From sequence record ON637250.1: 39,100 nucleotides of DNA. The stretch is one strand, 5' to 3'. A model generated the notes under the pieces. The model was given only the letters and a program-made list of their open reading frames with translations, did no database searches and was not told where the DNA came from. Below, piece after piece: positions 1,097 through 38,697 of this stretch; within the stretch, counting starts at the first letter, position 1; each line of letters starts with the position of its first letter. Both the position numbers and the translations under genes were made by a program. The stretch comes from Escherichia phage 6925.

Positions 1097-1603
1097 ATGG
1101 AACGTAATGCTAACGCATACTATGAGCTGCTGGCTGCAACCGTTGAGGCATTTATCGAGCGTATTCAGTACGACCACCTGACTCAAGATGACGACTACAG
1201 CACTGCGCTGCATGAGGTCGTAGACGGTCAGGTTCCACACTATTACCACGAGATTTTTACGGTGATGGCTGCTGATGGTATAGACAACGAGTTCGAAGAC
1301 TCTGGGATGATACCTGAAACCAAGGACGTAACGCGTATCCTACAAGCTCGCATCTATGAGGCGCTTTATAACGATGTGTCTAATAGCTTGGATGTAGTCT
1401 GGTTTGAGGATGAAGAGGCAGACGAAGAGGATGAATATTGGGTAGTTGACGCTAAAACAGGCGCAATAATTGTGCAAGCTGTAGCTCTTGAGGTCGCTAC
1501 TGCATGTGCCAAGGTTAACTATGCGGCAGGTCGCCACCTGAAGGTGGAAGACATCAATGATAACGTAGTGTTCGACCCTGCGGCTGAGGACTGCGAGCGA
1601 TGA
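1097..1603 (+). CDS. 0.3: Ocr-like anti-restriction DNA mimic (T7 gene 0.3 homologue) with a C-terminal extension of about 50 aa
   Basis: [43 protein letters not shown] aligns with T7 Ocr as recalled ([43 protein letters not shown]), followed by an acidic [10 protein letters not shown] run. RBS GAGAGGA 7 nt upstream. T7 Ocr is 117 aa; this ORF is 168 aa. Confidence 0.85.
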   Translation: [168 protein letters not shown]

Positions 1604-2213: not shown

Positions 2214-2477
2214 GTGGGGAATGTTTACTCTAGTCTGCAAACTACCGGTCCTTACTCAACTGTTATGGGGCTTATGACTATGAGTATCGCACTATTGATA
2301 GCCATAGGCTATGGACTTATCGCCTACGTGCTGGTGAGAGACATCAACAAAGCGCGTAAAGTCTACAAATTCAACTATGTACGTCTGGGTAGCTGGACTG
2401 TACGTCAACCTAACGGACGATTCATGCGTAACTTAGCGAACGTCTGGGATATAGCAACACTTGGGAGCAAACTGTAA
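2214..2477 (+). CDS. Hypothetical small membrane protein; start uncertain (GTG at 2214 or an internal ATG at about 2265-2274)
   Basis: ORF with a hydrophobic segment SIALLIAIGYGLIAYVLV followed by a basic tail. No strong RBS. Its stop overlaps the next start (TAATG). Confidence 0.4.
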   Translation: MGNVYSSLQTTGPYSTVMGLMTMSIALLIAIGYGLIAYVLVRDINKARKVYKFNYVRLGSWTVRQPNGRFMRNLANVWDIATLGSKL

Positions 2478-2803
2478 TGAACAAGTCATACGGGATTAAT
2501 CTGGTACACTCTATGGACGCAGACATGCAAATGTTAAGCCTACTGGCTACCGGGTATCGTCACGGAACGTCAAGTCACTCCGCACGTCAACAGCAGGAGC
2601 GGGACCGGGTACTGCAAGCAAGACTCCGGGCTGATGGCCATATATACGAACTGATGAGTCTGGCGTATGGTGGACGACCAATCACTGACGATGGTAAACT
2701 TTTAGTCTCAGGCTGGAAGGCGATAGACCAACGGTCAACCATCAAGCACACGACTCATGGTGACTTCAGTCATCTTCACGCTAACCCACTGATATGCAAG
2801 TGA
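2477..2803 (+). CDS. Hypothetical early protein (108 aa), in the position T7 gene 0.7 occupies but not kinase-like
   Basis: ORF translationally coupled to the upstream gene (TAATG). No protein-kinase motifs recognised. Confidence 0.45.
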   Translation: MNKSYGINLVHSMDADMQMLSLLATGYRHGTSSHSARQQQERDRVLQARLRADGHIYELMSLAYGGRPITDDGKLLVSGWKAIDQRSTIKHTTHGDFSHLHANPLICK

Positions 2804-2808
2804 TTCTG

Positions 2809-2831
2809 ACTTAACTATCACTATAGGACTC
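2809..2831 (+). promoter_or_regulatory. Phage RNAP promoter, canonical copy, directly upstream of the RNAP gene
   Basis: ACTTAACTATCACTATA|GGACTC is identical in -17..-1 to the right-end promoter at 38496; +1 G at 2826. Confidence 0.6.
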
Positions 2832-2900
2832 AAGGTCTAAGACTCCAAGTGAAAGACCAAAGAGACTCTAAGTGAAAGACTAATAACAAGGACTTTAAGT

Positions 2901-5582
2901 ATGAGCGTCATCTCTATTGACAAGCACGACTTCTCTGATGTGTCGAACGCCATTGAGCCGTTTAACCTACTGGCTGACCACTACGGGCAAGACCTTGCAG
3001 TCAAACAGCTTCAGCTTGAGCACGAGGCATACACTGAAGGCGAGCGACGTTTCATCAAGAACCTTGAGAGACAGACTGAGCGAGGGGAACTGGCAGACAA
3101 TCAGGTCGCCAAGCCTTTGATGCAGACTCTGGTCCCTAAGATTGCGCAAGCCGTCAAGGAGTGGCATGAAGGTCCAGACGGGAAGCTGTCAACCTCTCGT
3201 CCAAGCGTAGCGTTCACCGTGTTGAGCACTGAAGAGAAGGCCGTCAAGGACCGCTCTATGCGCATCTCCTGTGAGTCCGCTGCGGTTATCATACTGAAGG
3301 TCATACTCTCCAAGCTGGTCAAGCCTGAAGGGATACCGATTACACCGATGGCCTCCGCGATAGGTCGCACACTTGAGGACGAAATCCGCTTCGGTCGCAT
3401 CCGTGACAAAGAGAAAGAGCACTTCAAGAAGGCGATAGCTGATAACCTGAATAAGCGGGCCGGGGCGTCATACAAGAAAGCCTACATGCAAGCGGTCGAG
3501 GCGTCCATGCTGGAGCAAGGCCAACTGGAAGATGCGTGGGGGACTTGGAGTCCTACAGAGGCTGTCCACGTTGGCATCAAGATGCTCGAGATTGTCATCC
3601 AGTCAACACAACTGGTCGAGCTTAAGCGGTACGGTGCTGGCAATGCAGCGGCTGATGTAGAGATGGTCCACCTGTCAGACTTCTGGGTCAAGAAGATGGC
3701 ACAACGAGGATTCAGCCTTGCGGGTATCGCTCCAGTCTATCAGCCTTGCGTCGTTCCACCTAAGCCGTGGACTGGTGTCGTAGGCGGTGGGTATTGGGCC
3801 AAAGGTCGAAGACCATTGCCACTGATTCGCTTAGGGTCTAAGTCTGCGGTATCACGCTACGAAGACGTGTATATGCCTGAAGTCTATGACGCTGTGAACA
3901 TCATTCAGAATACACCTTGGAAAGTGAACAAGAAGGTTCTGGAAGTGGTGAACATGGTCGAGAAGCTGAACAACACGCCTATTGATGACATCCCTCAGAT
4001 GGAACCGCTGAAGCCTGAGGACTATGCTGGTGAGACTGAAGAAGAACTCAAGGCATGGAAGAAGGCTGCTGCTGGTATCTATCGCCGCGAGAAGGCCAGA
4101 CAGTCACGAAGATTGTCACTGAGCTTTATCGTCAACCAAGCGAACAAGTTCTCTCAGTTCAAGGCCATCTGGTTCCCGTATAACATGGACTGGCGCGGTC
4201 GCGTCTACGCTGTGCCGATGTTCAACCCTCAGGGTAACGACATGCAAAAGGGTCTTCTGACTCTGGCAGTTGGTAAGCCTATTGGTGCTGATGGTTTCAA
4301 ATGGCTGAAGGTCCACGGTGCAAACTGCGCGGGTGTCGATAAAGTCACCTTCGAGGAGCGTATCAAGTGGGTGGAAGATAACCACGACAACATCATGGCT
4401 GCTGCCAAGGCACCGATGGATAGCATTGAGTGGTGGGGCAAGTTAGACTCTCCGTTCTGCTTCCTAGCGTTCTGCTTCGAGTATGCTGGCGTAATGCACC
4501 ACGGCTTGTCTTACTCCTGCTCGCTGCCGATAGCGTTCGATGGGTCCTGCTCTGGGATTCAGCACTTCAGCGCTATGCTTCGCGACCACATCGGTGGACA
4601 TGCAGTAAACCTGACGCCATCCGGTAAGGTCCAAGACATCTACCGCATCGTGTCTGACCGCATTGAGGAGGAGCTTAAAGTCCTACTGGTTAACGGTACG
4701 GACAACGAGATGGTAACTCACGAGGACAAGAAAACTGGTGAGATTACCGAACGTATCAAGCTGGGGACACGAGAGCTTGCCCGTCAGTGGCTGACCTACG
4801 GTATGTCACGAAAGGTCACTAAGCGTTCGGTCATGACTCTGGCCTACGGGTCGAAAGAGTACGGCTTCGCAGACCAAGTTTACGAGGACATCGTGATGCC
4901 AGCGATTGACTCAGGGTCTGGCGCTATGTTCACTGAACCAAGCCAAGCATCTCGCTTCATGGCTAAGATGATTTGGGAAGCTGTGAGTGTGACCGTAGTT
5001 GCTGCGGTTGACGCGATGAAGTGGCTTCAGGGTGCTGCCAAGCTGCTGGCTGCTGAAGTGAAGGACAAGAAGACTGGCGAAATCCTGAAGCCATGCCTTC
5101 CGGTACACTGGGTAACACCTGATGGTTTCCCTGTCTGGCAGGAATACCGCAAGAAGGATACCACTCGTCTGAACCTGATGTTCTTAGGGTCATTCAACCT
5201 TCAGCCTACAGTCAACAAAGGAACGAAGAAAGAGCTTGACAAGCACAAGCAGGAGTCAGGCATTAGCCCTAACTTCGTCCACTCACAAGATGGTAGCCAC
5301 CTGCGGAAGACTGTAGTCCACACTCACCGCAAGTATGGCGTGATGTCATTCGCAGTGATTCACGATAGCTTCGGGACCATCCCTGCTGACGCTGAGTATC
5401 TGTTCCGTGGTGTCCGTGAGACGATGGTCGAGACATACCGCGATAACGATGTGCTGCTTGACTTCTACGAGCAGTTTGAATACCAGCTTCATGAAAGTCA
5501 GCGCGACAAGTTGCCTGAGCTTCCGAAGAAAGGTAAACTGAATATCGAAGACATCTTGTCTTCAGACTTTGCATTCGCTTAA
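2901..5582 (+). CDS. 1: T7-like single-subunit DNA-dependent RNA polymerase
   Basis: 893 aa, collinear with T7 RNAP as recalled, including DGSCSGIQHFSAMLRD, HDSFGT and the C-terminal FAFA. RBS AAGGA. Confidence 0.97.
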   Translation: MSVISIDKHDFSDVSNAIEPFNLLADHYGQDLAVKQLQLEHEAYTEGERRFIKNLERQTERGELADNQVAKPLMQTLVPKIAQAVKEWHEGPDGKLSTSRPSVAFTVLSTEEKAVKDRSMRISCESAAVIILKVILSKLVKPEGIPITPMASAIGRTLEDEIRFGRIRDKEKEHFKKAIADNLNKRAGASYKKAYMQAVEASMLEQGQLEDAWGTWSPTEAVHVGIKMLEIVIQSTQLVELKRYGAGNAAADVEMVHLSDFWVKKMAQRGFSLAGIAPVYQPCVVPPKPWTGVVGGGYWAKGRRPLPLIRLGSKSAVSRYEDVYMPEVYDAVNIIQNTPWKVNKKVLEVVNMVEKLNNTPIDDIPQMEPLKPEDYAGETEEELKAWKKAAAGIYRREKARQSRRLSLSFIVNQANKFSQFKAIWFPYNMDWRGRVYAVPMFNPQGNDMQKGLLTLAVGKPIGADGFKWLKVHGANCAGVDKVTFEERIKWVEDNHDNIMAAAKAPMDSIEWWGKLDSPFCFLAFCFEYAGVMHHGLSYSCSLPIAFDGSCSGIQHFSAMLRDHIGGHAVNLTPSGKVQDIYRIVSDRIEEELKVLLVNGTDNEMVTHEDKKTGEITERIKLGTRELARQWLTYGMSRKVTKRSVMTLAYGSKEYGFADQVYEDIVMPAIDSGSGAMFTEPSQASRFMAKMIWEAVSVTVVAAVDAMKWLQGAAKLLAAEVKDKKTGEILKPCLPVHWVTPDGFPVWQEYRKKDTTRLNLMFLGSFNLQPTVNKGTKKELDKHKQESGISPNFVHSQDGSHLRKTVVHTHRKYGVMSFAVIHDSFGTIPADAEYLFRGVRETMVETYRDNDVLLDFYEQFEYQLHESQRDKLPELPKKGKLNIEDILSSDFAFA

Positions 5583-5597
5583 CAGGAGGAGAAGTAT

Positions 5598-5828
5598 ATG
5601 TCAATGAAACTTGTAGCACACAACAGGATATACAACGATGGGTCTGGACGTTGCCATGTAGAGCTGACTTATAAGGATTTAATCATTCTCCGAGACAGAT
5701 TACAGTCGGGTGTGACTGGGTGGATTCAACCTAACGAGTACAACCTTATAGCTTCGATTGATGAAGTTCTTAACGCGTGGATGGAAGACGAGCGCATTCA
5801 GCATCCGTCATTCCCTCTAATTAGATAA
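5598..5828 (+). CDS. Hypothetical protein (76 aa) immediately after the RNAP gene
   Basis: Strong RBS AGGAGGAG 7 nt before the ATG. No match to T7 gp1.1 or gp1.2 as recalled. Confidence 0.55.
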   Translation: MSMKLVAHNRIYNDGSGRCHVELTYKDLIILRDRLQSGVTGWIQPNEYNLIASIDEVLNAWMEDERIQHPSFPLIR

Positions 5829-6129: not shown

Positions 6130-6152
6130 CCTAAACTATCACTATAGGATTA
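6130..6152 (+). promoter_or_regulatory. Phage RNAP promoter (phi1.1-like)
   Basis: CCTAAACTATCACTATA|GGATTA; +1 at 6147. Confidence 0.7.
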
Positions 6153-6195
6153 GACTCAAGGTCATGACTCAAAGTCGTGGCCTTCATGATTAACC
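6148..6195 (+). promoter_or_regulatory. RNase III-like processing site (R1.1-like)
   Basis: TAGACTCAAGGTCATGACTCAAAGTCGTGGCCTTCATGATTAA has the CTCAAGG ... GTGGCC-TTTATGAT pattern of T7 R sites; the same pattern recurs at 13213 and 36093. Confidence 0.55.
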
Positions 6196-6660: not shown

Positions 6661-7775
6661 TGACAACTATTAAAACTAACCCGCACCGCGCTGTAGATTA
6701 CTCTGAGTCAGGAGTTACGAAAGCACTGGCAGCAGCCGGGTCGCTGGAAGCTGAAGTGAAGTATGATGGTGTGCGGCTGAACCTCCCGGTCTTCCCTACT
6801 GGTGAGACACAATGGTTGAGCCGTGAGTCTAAACCTCTCCCAGCCCTTGAGTGGCTGTCAGTCCTTACCAACATCGACAACATCGTCAGGAACCAGCAAA
6901 AAGCTAGCGACTGGCGGTGGTTCCTGAAGCAGGCTGGCTACGAAGGCACTGGCCTGATGATTGACGGTGAGGTCATGGTAAAAGGAGTGGACTTCAATAC
7001 GTCTTCAGGTCTAGTCCGTACCATGTGGTCAGACACTAAGAACTACGCTTGGAATGGCAACCCAGATGCTGACATCGACACCAAGAAGAAGCATAAGGTC
7101 CCTTTCCATCTGGCAACCGACTACATACGCGTGGTTGTCTACGGTATCGTGGACCTTAACGTCATCCTTGACCCGAAATCCGAAGGTCCTATCCATAGCG
7201 TCACACGCCTGAAGGCCGAAGCTATCGTCCCTCTCCTCCAGAAATACTTCCCGGAAATCGACTGGGTTCTGTCTGAGTCACACACGGTCTATGACCTTGA
7301 GTCGCTCAACTCCCTGTACGAAGAGAAGCGTCTGGAAGGACACGAGGGTCTGGTAGTCAAGGACCCGCTTGGTAAATACAAGCGAGGCAAGAAGTCTGGC
7401 ATGTGGAAAATGAAGCCTGAGGAGACCATCGACGGGACCGTGTGTGGCCTCGTGTGGGGGACTCCGGGTAAGGCTAACGAAGGTAAGATCATCGGCTTTG
7501 AGGTTCTACTGGAGGATGGCATGGTGGTCAACGCCTGCGGTCTGTCTGAAGAACAGAAGGACTGGTTTACGGCTAAGGTCAAGGAGGACACGCTTGCTGC
7601 GGTTGGCATCTTTGCGCCGTACGGCATTGGTGGTAACGAACCTTGCTTCGATAACCAATACGAAGGCTGGCAGTGTGAAGTCCTCTTCATGGAGAGGTTC
7701 CCTGATGGCTCCCTTCGTCACCCCAGCTTCAAGTGCTGGCGTGGAACCGAAGACAACCCAACGGTGAAGTCATGA
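6660..7775 (+). CDS. 1.3: ATP-dependent DNA ligase
   Basis: 371 aa with the KYDGVR adenylation motif; collinear with T7 ligase (IKTNP..., EGHEGLVVKDP, KSGMWKMKPE, DGSLRHPSF). Confidence 0.95.
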   Translation: MTTIKTNPHRAVDYSESGVTKALAAAGSLEAEVKYDGVRLNLPVFPTGETQWLSRESKPLPALEWLSVLTNIDNIVRNQQKASDWRWFLKQAGYEGTGLMIDGEVMVKGVDFNTSSGLVRTMWSDTKNYAWNGNPDADIDTKKKHKVPFHLATDYIRVVVYGIVDLNVILDPKSEGPIHSVTRLKAEAIVPLLQKYFPEIDWVLSESHTVYDLESLNSLYEEKRLEGHEGLVVKDPLGKYKRGKKSGMWKMKPEETIDGTVCGLVWGTPGKANEGKIIGFEVLLEDGMVVNACGLSEEQKDWFTAKVKEDTLAAVGIFAPYGIGGNEPCFDNQYEGWQCEVLFMERFPDGSLRHPSFKCWRGTEDNPTVKS

Positions 7776-7955: not shown

Positions 7956-7990
7956 AACCCAGTGGTCTTATGACTGCTGGGTTTCTTTGC
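7956..7990 (+). terminator. Candidate early (host RNAP) terminator, TE-like hairpin
   Basis: Stem AACCCAGT/GCTGGGTT (7956-7963 with 7976-7983) followed by TTTCTTTG; position is analogous to T7 TE. The U-run is interrupted. Confidence 0.35.
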
Positions 7991-8662: not shown

Positions 8663-8734
8663 ATGATGTTCGAGAAGACAGGTAACACTGACTACCTTGA
8701 ATTGTATAACCAGTGGAAGGAGCGCGGTTTATGA
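8663..8734 (+). CDS. Possible mini-ORF (23 aa) coupled to gene 2
   Basis: ATG-ATG start; stop overlaps the gene 2 ATG (ATGA). No other support. Confidence 0.2.
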
Positions 8735-8889
8735 CTGAGGTTGAGAAGAAATACATCGTGGAGCTTGAGGGTCGCGTTCAGTCCTTCGAGGTTCCGTTGT
8801 ACGCAAAGTCTCTTGAAGAGGCTACCCTGAAGTCCCAAGAGTATGAGGACGCTGGGTTTATGGTCGGACGGATTCGTCCTGAGACCTAA
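8731..8889 (+). CDS. 2: gp2-like inhibitor of host RNA polymerase (52 aa)
   Basis: Own translation: [52 protein letters not shown]. The SFEVPLYA and AGF-V-R-RP blocks match T7 gp2 as recalled. Below the 60-aa track cutoff. Confidence 0.7.
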
Positions 8890-10088: not shown

Positions 10089-10579
10089 TGAGCAAGAAGT
10101 TTAAACTGTTAGTAGATGCGCATGGCTGGCCTAGTGGGACTATAGTTACCAAGTGTGAGAATGACCCCGTACCAGATTCAAGAATGACCCTAGTTGAGTG
10201 CCAGACTCCAGGCGCATACAAACATGGGTCTAACGGCTGCAATACTCAGCCTGAGGGTATGTGGGGAGCATGGGTCCTTAATTGGAAACTTGAGGAAATC
10301 AAGCCGGAAGAGAAACTCACTGGTGTCCAAACCACTCAAGTCCTGCCAGCTTCGAGCGTACCGCCTGTGACTTTGAAGCGTGAAGTCCTGACCATCGACA
10401 AGATTGGTGTAGGCCAGACGTTCATCGTCCATGGAAAGCCTGAAGAAGTTTACGTGAAGATTAGCAACTCACACGTCTTCAACCATAAGCATCTCCAGAT
10501 GCACACCACGGACGCACAACGCTTCACCCAGCACCTGAATCTGGTTGTCGTAGAATTGGTGGTGTACAATGGTAAGTAA
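10085..10579 (+). CDS. Hypothetical protein (164 aa) between endonuclease I and the amidase; no T7 counterpart recognised
   Basis: RBS AAAGGAG. Starts GTG at 10085 or ATG at 10088, overlapping the endonuclease I stop. Confidence 0.55.
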   Translation: MMSKKFKLLVDAHGWPSGTIVTKCENDPVPDSRMTLVECQTPGAYKHGSNGCNTQPEGMWGAWVLNWKLEEIKPEEKLTGVQTTQVLPASSVPPVTLKREVLTIDKIGVGQTFIVHGKPEEVYVKISNSHVFNHKHLQMHTTDAQRFTQHLNLVVVELVVYNGK

Positions 10580-11027
10580 GGTACAGTTCAATCCACGGTC
10601 CCGGACCGACGCTATCTTCGTACACTGTTCGGCTACCAAGCCAGAGATGGACATCGGGGTAGAGACCATCCGTATGTGGCACAAGCAGCAAGGCTGGCTG
10701 GACGTAGGATACCACTTCATCATCAAGCGCGATGGCACTGTGGAAGAGGGACGCCCGGTCAATGTCGTAGGGTCACACGTTAAGGACTGGAACTCACGGT
10801 CTGTAGGCGTCTGCCTTGTAGGTGGAATTGACGCTAAGGGCAAGTTTGAAGCTAACTTCACTCCGGCCCAGATGAACTCCCTGCGCAACAAGCTGGCTGA
10901 CCTGAAAGTCCTGTATCCTCAGGCAGAAATCAAAGCACACCATGACGTAGCACCTAAGGCGTGTCCAAGTTTTGACTTGCAACGCTGGCTGTCTACCAAC
11001 GAACTTGTCACTTCAGACCGTGGTTAA
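10569..11027 (+). CDS. 3.5: N-acetylmuramoyl-L-alanine amidase (T7 lysozyme, RNAP inhibitor)
   Basis: 152 aa; DAIFVHCSATKP, WLDVGYHFIIKRDGTVEEGR, GVCLVGGID, HHDVAPKACPSFDL and C-terminal NELVTSDRG match T7 gp3.5. Confidence 0.95.
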   Translation: MVSKVQFNPRSRTDAIFVHCSATKPEMDIGVETIRMWHKQQGWLDVGYHFIIKRDGTVEEGRPVNVVGSHVKDWNSRSVGVCLVGGIDAKGKFEANFTPAQMNSLRNKLADLKVLYPQAEIKAHHDVAPKACPSFDLQRWLSTNELVTSDRG

Positions 11028-11051: not shown

Positions 11052-11267
11052 ATGATTAAACTTATCGAATTTCTTGGTCGTCTGGTGGTGCGTGGCTATC
11101 GTCGTGCTGCAGTACTGGAACGAAAGGTAGAAAAGAAGACTGCTGACGGTGCGGCTGATGCTGCTGCGCTGGCTGACAAGCTGACCATCGCATCACTGGA
11201 AGCTGGCATGAAGGCGCGTCAAGCTGATACCAAAGCTGACCAGTTGGCTCAGTTCTTCAAAGCCTAA
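11052..11267 (+). CDS. Hypothetical protein, predicted helical (about 71 aa); alternative start at 11037
   Basis: GGAGA sits 9 nt before the ATG at 11052; Ala- and Lys-rich sequence. Confidence 0.45.
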   Translation: MIKLIEFLGRLVVRGYRRAAVLERKVEKKTADGAADAAALADKLTIASLEAGMKARQADTKADQLAQFFKA

Positions 11268-11285
11268 ACTATCACCTTAGGGATG
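11263..11285 (+). promoter_or_regulatory. Possible weak or variant phage promoter (phi4-like), core CACCTTA
   Basis: CCTAAACTATCACCTTA|GGGATG: the upstream half is exact, with two mismatches at -4/-3. Confidence 0.35.
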
Positions 11286-11332: not shown

Positions 11333-13036
<1,704 letters not shown>

Positions 13037-25939: not shown

Positions 25940-25989
25940 AAGGGCCTATAGATTTACCTTAACTATCACTATAGGGACTATAGGCCCTT
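25940..25989 (+). promoter_or_regulatory. Phage RNAP promoter (phi13-like, -17..+6 at 25957-25979) nested inside a perfect 12-bp inverted repeat
   Basis: CCTTAACTATCACTATA|GGGACT with +1 at 25974. Arms AAGGGCCTATAG (25940-25951) and CTATAGGCCCTT (25978-25989). Confidence 0.7.
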
Positions 25990-38401: not shown

Positions 38402-38495
38402 CTGAATGAATAACTATAGGCGAAAACTGAGTTAATAAGCAGTTAGTAACCTATAGTTACTACCAGTCTAACCTACTGTTTTACAAGGAGTTTGG

Positions 38496-38518
38496 ACTTA
38501 ACTATCACTATAGGGAAG
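38496..38518 (+). promoter_or_regulatory. Phage RNAP promoter near the right end (phiOR-like)
   Basis: ACTTAACTATCACTATA|GGGAAG; +1 at 38513. Confidence 0.75.
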
Positions 38519-38697
38519 ACCCCCGGTTACTTATAGTATTACTATAGTGAATATACATATGCAGACTTTATGCAAGACCTTAGGAGGCAGACTCCGAGTT
38601 CTTACCTAAGGCTTGCACCGATGGGAGGAGGTGATATTAATCATAATACCTCCAATACAGATAGTCACAGACCATAGATACAGGAGGTATGTAGCAT

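Follow-up and report, generated by a model that had tools for sequence, protein, structure and literature searches.

A phage promoter placed to transcribe the RNA polymerase gene of a Kayfunavirus coliphage

The element at positions 2809-2831 of the Escherichia phage 6925 sequence (ON637250.1; the window, by which we mean the whole stretch of 39,100 nucleotides that was analysed) appears to be the leftmost of eleven promoters for the phage's own RNA polymerase, and gene 1, which encodes this polymerase, is probably transcribed from it by its own product and amplified after seeding by the host enzyme. The evidence from this analysis consists of the sequence match, conservation, co-variation with polymerase specificity and gene layout. 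This evidence gives good support to a phage promoter positioned for transcription of gene 1 and makes transcription of the gene by its own product very likely; from the same data we infer initiation in vivo, feedback and limitation of the feedback by the gp3.5 homologue.

Judged from its sequence, the window is a unit-length genome of a Kayfunavirus coliphage (K1F-like, Studiervirinae). The region 2300-5600 shows 95-99% identity to dozens of Kayfunavirus coliphages, with phages HC13, HC12 and LM33_P1 as the best matches, and the stretch 2700-2960 is 100% identical to phage HC12. When the end of the window (...TCTCACA) is joined to its start (GTTCAAGAAC...), the left end of phage EcoDS1 is obtained; this junction indicates that the genome is present at unit length, carries the terminal repeat once and is opened 7 nt inside this repeat.

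The promoter upstream of gene 1 and its transcription context

The 23-mer ACTTAACTATCACTATAGGACTC was located by exact sequence match at 2809-2831 on the plus strand, where it spans -17 to +6 of a predicted phage RNA polymerase promoter of the K1F specificity class. Because the CACTATAGG core spans 2819-2827, the predicted +1 is G2826. Screening the window for the pattern CTWARCTATCACTRTAGG yielded ten exact matches, all on the plus strand, where 0.14 would be expected with up to three mismatches, and besides these one site with two mismatches from 11264 and one match with three mismatches. Using a position weight matrix derived from the nine other strong sites, with leave-one-out scoring and both strands searched, we obtained a score of 33.0 bits for 2809-2831, compared with 28.6-36.0 bits for the nine sites themselves; the weak eleventh site (matrix hit from 11263) scored 23.6 bits and the next-best sequence on either strand 14.2. 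All eleven sites lie on the coding strand and correspond one-to-one with the eleven “phi” promoters annotated in EcoDS1. The sequence-only reading, made before any comparison with other genomes, had described the element as indistinguishable in its core from ten other phage promoters. The matrix-level match to the phage's other promoters upholds this, the count of ten being correct once the two-mismatch site at 11264 is included, and by exact sequence, matrix score, EcoDS1 homologue, conservation and co-variation 2809-2831 is a bona fide member of the phage promoter set. To the left of 2809 the scan with the promoter matrix gave no site above 1 bit, hence 2809-2831 is the leftmost phage promoter and a counterpart of phiOL is absent. 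The initially transcribed sequence, GGACTC, groups with those of the other promoters left of gene 4 (GGATTA, GGACAA, GGACAG) and not with the late promoters, which are of the GGGA... type and occupy the phi6.5, phi10, phi13 and phiOR positions. In T7, class II promoters, as opposed to those of class III, are of moderate strength and sensitive to inhibition by lysozyme; by analogy, the GGACTC start suggests that the gene 1 promoter may likewise be moderately strong and lysozyme-sensitive.

The promoter begins 5 nt past the stop codon of the last early ORF (2477-2803, plus strand), which is gp0.38-like and is named gp0.38 in K1F and EcoDS1. Gene 1 (2901-5582, plus strand) encodes a single-subunit RNA polymerase of 893 aa (PHROG 414, E = 0) with 63.8% identity to T7 RNA polymerase. 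Between them lies the predicted leader of the phage-polymerase transcript of gene 1 (2826-2900, plus strand, 75 nt) with a Shine-Dalgarno sequence AAGGA at 2888-2892, 8 nt ahead of the ATG at 2901, which confirms the distance of about 75 nt from promoter to polymerase start codon that had been read from the sequence at the outset. A simple scan of the plus strand from 2826 to 5582 found no terminator-like elements. Self-amplification would follow from this layout, namely a cognate promoter 75 nt upstream of the polymerase gene and nothing terminator-like between.

The genome also provides an independent source of the first polymerase. One match to the sigma-70 consensus was found at 552-581, the EcoDS1 record has three host promoters annotated at 469-800, and a putative early terminator of the TE type, with a 12-bp stem followed by a U-rich tail (UUUCUUUG), was identified by folding after the ligase gene (7956-7990, plus strand), a place equivalent to that of the TE annotated in EcoDS1 (7668-7697). 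As this terminator lies beyond gene 1, gene 1 is predicted to be inside the host-transcribed early unit, as in T7. The next phage promoter, identified by sequence and matrix, is at the phi1.1 position (6130-6152, plus strand), and a late terminator was found at about 22630, after the capsid gene. Further downstream of gene 1, the plus strand encodes a gp2-like inhibitor of host RNA polymerase (8713-8889; PHROG 1307, E = 5.6e-23) and a gp3.5-like amidase/lysozyme (10569-11027; PHROG 822, E = 3.2e-80).

We propose that host RNA polymerase would start at the left-end early promoters and transcribe the early genes together with gene 1 to about 7990, and that the phage polymerase, once made, would also initiate at G2826 and transcribe its own gene and all those downstream. 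The supply of gene 1 mRNA would be maintained and amplified after the gp2 homologue silences the host enzyme, an action after which this mRNA would come from the phage promoter alone. The gp3.5 lysozyme homologue is a candidate brake that, by analogy with T7, may bound the loop by inhibiting the polymerase. In the literature searched, no Kayfunavirus transcript maps were found; the K1B4 paper was considered as one and ruled out, K1B4 being an unrelated siphovirus. Two other ideas were also discarded. No gp0.7 kinase was found among the seven early ORFs by PHROG comparison, and a tie between the promoter and loss of this kinase was ruled out because GW1 and CR8 have 0.7-like genes as well as the promoter. 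The T7 class II pause/termination word ATCTGTT occurs three times in the window against 5.6 expected, which is not meaningful, and the one copy that falls within the transcribed stretch, at 5398 towards the 3' end of gene 1, does not exceed chance expectation.

Conservation and co-variation with polymerase specificity

The cognate site was found in all 21 Kayfunavirus-type IMG/VR loci (polymerase 88-99% identical), with the +1 at -75, -76 or -81 from the gene 1 ATG, and the loci compared hold 16 distinct promoter-leader variants in all. In 219 of 221 phage records, moreover, the match extends over 80% or more of the 2700-2960 query. Two lineages differ both in promoter specificity and in the polymerase specificity loop, represented by GW1 (ACCCTCACTATAGG) and CR8 (GGAAGGTACACTATAGG). 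Cronobacter phage GW1 has 12 genome-wide sites of the type TAAACCCTCACTATAGG, one of them 76 nt upstream of gene 1, and Citrobacter phage CR8 (Caroctavirus) has 11 sites of the type AAGGAAGGTACACTATAGG, one of them ahead of gene 1. The specificity loop TRLNLMFLGSFNLQPT goes with AACTAT promoters in the window, TRLDLMFLGTFRLQPT with T3-like ACCCT promoters in GW1, and TRIKLMFMG-VQYRPT with GGAAGGTA promoters in CR8; the GW1 loop has the D and the FRLQPT stretch in common with a T3-like enzyme. In the GW1-type loci only the bases -12 to -8 are replaced, and the sequence on either side of the site (gp0.38 end and leader) has hardly changed. In T7 and T3 these loop positions and the bases at -12 to -8 determine specificity. 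That the site co-varies with polymerase specificity speaks for a functional promoter. For the K1F family, loop and promoter swaps have shown this dependence: T7 polymerase carrying a grafted K1F-family specificity loop is active in vivo on a promoter with the K1F-family -12 to -7 consensus, orthogonally to T7 (PMC3458549), and the K1F polymerase and its promoter are in use as an orthogonal pair (PMC12218169). Among the 11 promoters of the Ro45lw-type phages, the gene 1 promoter alone has A for T at -2 and with 29.5 bits is joint lowest with one other, so that in this lineage full promoter strength is not strictly kept up. As to its main point, a phage promoter placed to transcribe gene 1, the sequence-only reading stands on the matrix match, the presence of the site in 21 of 21 relatives, the co-variation in GW1 and CR8 and the lack of a terminator-like element in the scan.

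The leader and alternative roles of the element

The leader carries a direct repeat, 12 of 14 nucleotides being identical between 2845-2858 and 2868-2881. It can be extended to 21 nt with 90% identity (copy 1, AGACTCCAAGTGAAAGACCAA, 2840-2860; copy 2, AGACTCTAAGTGAAAGACTAA, 2863-2883; both on the plus strand), a weaker third copy is present at 2827-2844, and the exact occurrences of AAGTGAAAGAC in the window are the two repeat copies only. Copy 1 holds the descending arm of a weak hairpin at 2834-2858 on the plus strand (GGUCU..ACU-CCA-AGU..AGACC, preceded by ACUCAAGGUC; -9 kcal/mol, z -0.99), and within copy 2 the stretch 2866-2878 is complementary to promoter -11 to +2. The repeat had been noticed earlier and suggested to moderate the feedback. 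The repeat is real; its moderating role found no support, as the RNA starting at G2826 shows no unusual folding (-14.5 kcal/mol, z +0.41), and a strongly structured phage-made leader that moderates expression is thereby ruled out. On weak indications, we take the repeat instead to belong to a degenerate hairpin located where T7 has its R1 site. Across 13 distinct leaders RNAalifold recovered an invariant weak pairing of +3..+12 with the region of the ribosome binding site (-4.1 kcal/mol, no co-variation), hence no claim of a conserved structure of the leader is made here. Alignment of the two leader types gives different registers, which a single structure line cannot cover together.

It is possible, although we consider it doubtful, that the conserved unit at this locus is an RNA hairpin, the counterpart of the T7 R1 RNase III site, a reading that is also compatible with promoter function. 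An extended imperfect hairpin of about 22 bp, a candidate RNase III site, can be drawn at 2815-2878 on the plus strand: promoter -11 to +6 (2815-2831) pairs with 2862-2878, which overlaps repeat copy 2, and the small hairpin 2834-2858 forms the cap. The fold of 2806-2890 has -17.2 kcal/mol and z -1.77, with 7 of 200 shuffles as good, and the hairpin is complete only in RNA that reads through from upstream. A strong hairpin is found at -60 to -35 from gene 1 in six other Studiervirinae lineages (T7, T3-like, K11-like, locus L024, Stepyanka of Elunavirus and fPS-26 of Helsettvirus), compared with -86 to -23 from the ATG in the window, which places the latter at an R1-type location; the T7 hairpin ahead of gene 1 is the R1 RNase III site. 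Furthermore, ACTCAAGGTC begins the Kayfunavirus leader as well as the sequence after the window's 6130 promoter and that after T7 phi1.1A, and this shared leader start favours the hairpin. The 6130 promoter has a strong hairpin behind it, at about 6158-6183 (fold of this leader -17.7 kcal/mol, z -2.68), homologous to the T7 sequence after phi1.1A, in which ACTCAAGGTC is likewise followed by a strong hairpin, the R1.1 RNase III site. In the Ro45lw-type phages the unusual A at -2 is matched by a perfect 11-nt complement of the promoter core in the leader (CUUUAGUGAUA), in the segment homologous to copy 2, and among leaders of the window's type the base opposite G+1 is either C or U, so that a G-C or a G-U pair is kept.

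Support for the extended hairpin is marginal, however. Its z-scores reach just -1.5 to -1.9 (-1.77 in the window, against -2.68 for the 6130-promoter hairpin and -2.15 for the T7 region ahead of gene 1), RNAalifold did not recover it and found no compensatory pair, and the apparent compensation amounts to one event in one lineage. CR8 has a self-contained 12-bp leader hairpin instead, the complement of the CR8 promoter being absent, and in the minimum-energy fold of Kc166A the promoter-leader pairing is reduced to the 7-bp UAUCACU/AGUGAUA. A search of Rfam gave no family match anywhere in the window, and RNase III sites are not listed in the EcoDS1 record. Under the RNase III reading, transcripts started at G2826, which are without most of the 5' arm, would escape processing. 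Rather unlikely in our view is a true dual role, in which the promoter core in host-made read-through RNA would pair with repeat copy 2 as the 5' arm of an RNase III hairpin of the R1 type, and phage-made RNA, started inside this arm, could not form the hairpin. If true, the gene 1 mRNAs of the two polymerases would differ in processing, stability or translation, the phage would possess an inherent means of handling the polymerase mRNA made early by the host unlike that which it makes itself later on, and the tolerance of the Ro45lw-type phages for an off-consensus base at -2 would be explained.

As a counterpoint to the reading of the site as a feedback promoter of gene 1, it could also serve other promoter-dependent roles. 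T7 promoters have roles in replication priming and genome entry. We hold the chance to be small that the main job of 2809-2831 is replication priming (as for T7 phi1.1A/B and phiOL) or genome entry driven by the fast phage polymerase, the site replacing the missing phiOL. It is the leftmost site and no phiOL-type site is present in the window, whereas in T7, K11-like and Helsettvirus phages a promoter at the left end precedes gene 1 by 0.8-3.4 kb; but the fixed distance of 75-81 nt to the gene 1 start codon and the conserved ribosome binding site are the layout of an expression promoter, the position of the T7 primary origin promoter is already taken by the 6130 promoter, and transcription from 2809-2831 must traverse gene 1 anyway. 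A silent or decaying functionless copy, for example one that arose when the module of promoter and hairpin behind gene 1 was duplicated, is highly improbable, since no relic would be re-tuned to three polymerase specificities with its flanks constant and the site is present in every relative examined, with full matrix score in most, even though the leader begins like the module after the 6130 promoter (GGA..ACTCAAGGTC), consistent with duplication, and the Ro45lw-type lineage has the off-consensus A at -2. A promoter from which the polymerase transcribes its own gene remains our preferred reading of 2809-2831.

Comparison with known systems

The promoter ahead of gene 1 has been annotated before in this group of phages, and the arrangement has been described in Autographiviridae. 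The EcoDS1 record (EU734172) has a “promoter, phi” at 2244-2266 directly before gene 1, which is the same element: EcoDS1 is 98.4% identical over the query stretch 2705-2960, has the same 75 nt from +1 to ATG, the same 11 phage promoters, the TE and the late terminator after gene 10, and no phiOL. It differs from the window in isolate and in details of the upstream early gene set, and the record is silent on promoter function. In CR8 (HG818824) a “predicted promoter” is annotated at 3356-3378 before gene 1 and after a gp0.38-like gene, although promoter specificity (AAGGAAGGTACACTATAGG) and polymerase loop differ and the RNA polymerase identity to the window is 78.7%. In both relatives the element has been annotated independently. 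Some public records (Ro45lw, LM33_P1 and K1F AM084414) are without annotation of the gene 1 promoter.

The earlier remark on T7, that gene 1 there is not preceded by a phage promoter, is correct for the immediate neighbourhood, which holds the minor E. coli promoter C (3113), and incorrect for the genome, in which phiOL lies at 405 and gene 1 at 3171. Like 2809-2831, phiOL is the leftmost phage promoter, from which the polymerase can in principle transcribe its own gene; it lies, however, 2.77 kb upstream, left of the host promoters, and is not dedicated to gene 1. T7-like, T3-like and K11-like loci have no adjacent promoter and instead one 2.5-3.4 kb upstream, and since these phages manage without it, an adjacent promoter is not essential to this life style. 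The T7 arrangements phi1.1A-R1.1 and phi1.3-R1.3, in each of which an RNase III hairpin comes after a class II promoter, resemble the window in having ACUCAAGGUC... and a hairpin within about 10 nt of the promoter. The T7 hairpin about 35-60 nt ahead of gene 1 has no neighbouring phage promoter, unlike that of Kayfunavirus, and the Kayfunavirus hairpin is much weaker than that of T7, and its lower stem would need the promoter itself.

In Ghunavirus P413 (gh-1-like) the sequence shows a like arrangement, with a copy of the phage's own repeated motif CCCTCACTGTTGCGACA at a distance of 128 nt ahead of gene 1. In the Pseudomonas phage LUZ100, the phage-specific promoter phi1 immediately precedes the polymerase gene and was mapped by ONT-cappable-seq; in the authors' model the initial polymerase stems from read-through by the host enzyme and then boosts transcription of its own gene in a positive feedback (PMC10134795). 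LUZ100 is distant and temperate-like, and its promoter is proposed to be repressed by a MarR-like protein, which has no counterpart in the window. A 2026 genome note on another Kayfunavirus (PMC13298934) reports a CTWAACTATCACTATAGG repeat, located at the 3' end of the ORF whose number directly precedes that of the polymerase gene. SP6 was ruled out as a precedent, no SP6-type promoter being found directly before the SP6 polymerase gene. With EcoDS1 and CR8 annotated, and P413, LUZ100 and T7 phiOL on record, the rarity that the sequence-only reading implied for such a promoter proves overstated.

The result mainly settles an annotation question for the window and opens no long-standing one. 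It corrects the T7-derived textbook view of gene 1 as a purely host-transcribed early gene, as K1F-like phages, CR8, a gh-1-like phage and LUZ100 have a cognate promoter of their own for the polymerase gene, and the feedback belongs in models of the infection dynamics of these therapeutic phages. Expression systems based on the K1F polymerase could, moreover, take the natural promoter and leader as a ready-made autogene cassette. The engineered counterpart is the T7 autogene, T7 gene 1 under a T7 promoter, which was reportedly constructed by Dubendorff and Studier in 1991 and shows how long this circuit logic has been familiar. Two papers describe its use (PMC6395690, PMC1500874). The T7 autogene follows the same logic of positive feedback once seeded; it is artificial, whereas the arrangement proposed here would be natural, seeded by the host and part of a lytic programme.

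Promoters before the polymerase gene in other phages

The RefSeq record of Ro45lw (NC_048136) annotates seven phage promoters and leaves out the one in front of gene 1, at 2400-2422, which is an annotation gap in the public record. This site carries an A at position -2, the sole such case among the 11 promoters of Ro45lw. The Ghunavirus Pseudomonas phage P413 has its own promoter-like repeated motif, CCCTCACTGTTGCGACA, at about 3857-3873, 128 nt before the RNA polymerase gene, with three further copies downstream within the sequence stretch examined. Thus, the arrangement of a promoter before the polymerase gene is not confined to K1F-like phages. In a T3-like IMG/VR contig (L039), T3-type promoters at about 1932 and 2884 lie only 1569 and 617 nt before gene 1, which indicates an early region much shorter than that of T3.

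A K1F-type core in K11-like loci

A K1F-type promoter core (...ACTATCACTATAGGTCTA...), which differs from the own-type ATTAGGnnnCACTATAGG, is present in 12 of the 39 K11-like (Przondovirus-type) IMG/VR loci, e.g. at 463-491 in L047, 387-415 in L049 and 772-800 in L056. It is located approximately 52 nt downstream of the leftmost promoter of the locus itself. Possibly, the core reflects cross-specificity or is a relic.

Further promoter positions of the window

The weak 11th promoter (CCTAAACTATCACCTTAGGGATG, 11263-11285, 23.6 bits) precedes the primase/helicase gene, which begins at 11336. It is degenerate in the window, in Cronobacter phage GW1 and in Ro45lw, and perfect in Citrobacter phage CR8; its counterpart in the EcoDS1 record is annotated as phi. 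At the phi13 position (25957-25984), the promoter is followed 9 nt on by a second ACTATAGG (CACTATAGGGACTATAGGCC), and the same doubled arrangement is found around 36000 in GW1. Within 38412-38549, the phiOR-type promoter (38496-38518) is surrounded by four ACTATAG-type words whose orientation alternates. One of these words, 30 nt downstream of the core, repeats it in inverted form and so gives rise to a hairpin in the transcript.

Gene records and repeats compared with related phages

Gene 1 is a single intact open reading frame of 893 amino acids in the window, whereas the LM33_P1 record (LT594300) divides its gene 1 region (2925-5606) into two coding sequences, 2925-4892 and 4920-5606. The same record labels as "phage protein kinase" an open reading frame (1121-1624) at the position of the ocr-like reading frame of the window (1097-1603), and the latter matches the ocr family. 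Just inside the terminal repeat, the window carries an array of short repeats of the CCATAAGTCA / CCTACAGTC type (180-310). This array is similar to the repeat arrays near the genome ends of the T7 group, and at the equivalent place in CR8 (acctacagtcaac)3 is annotated.
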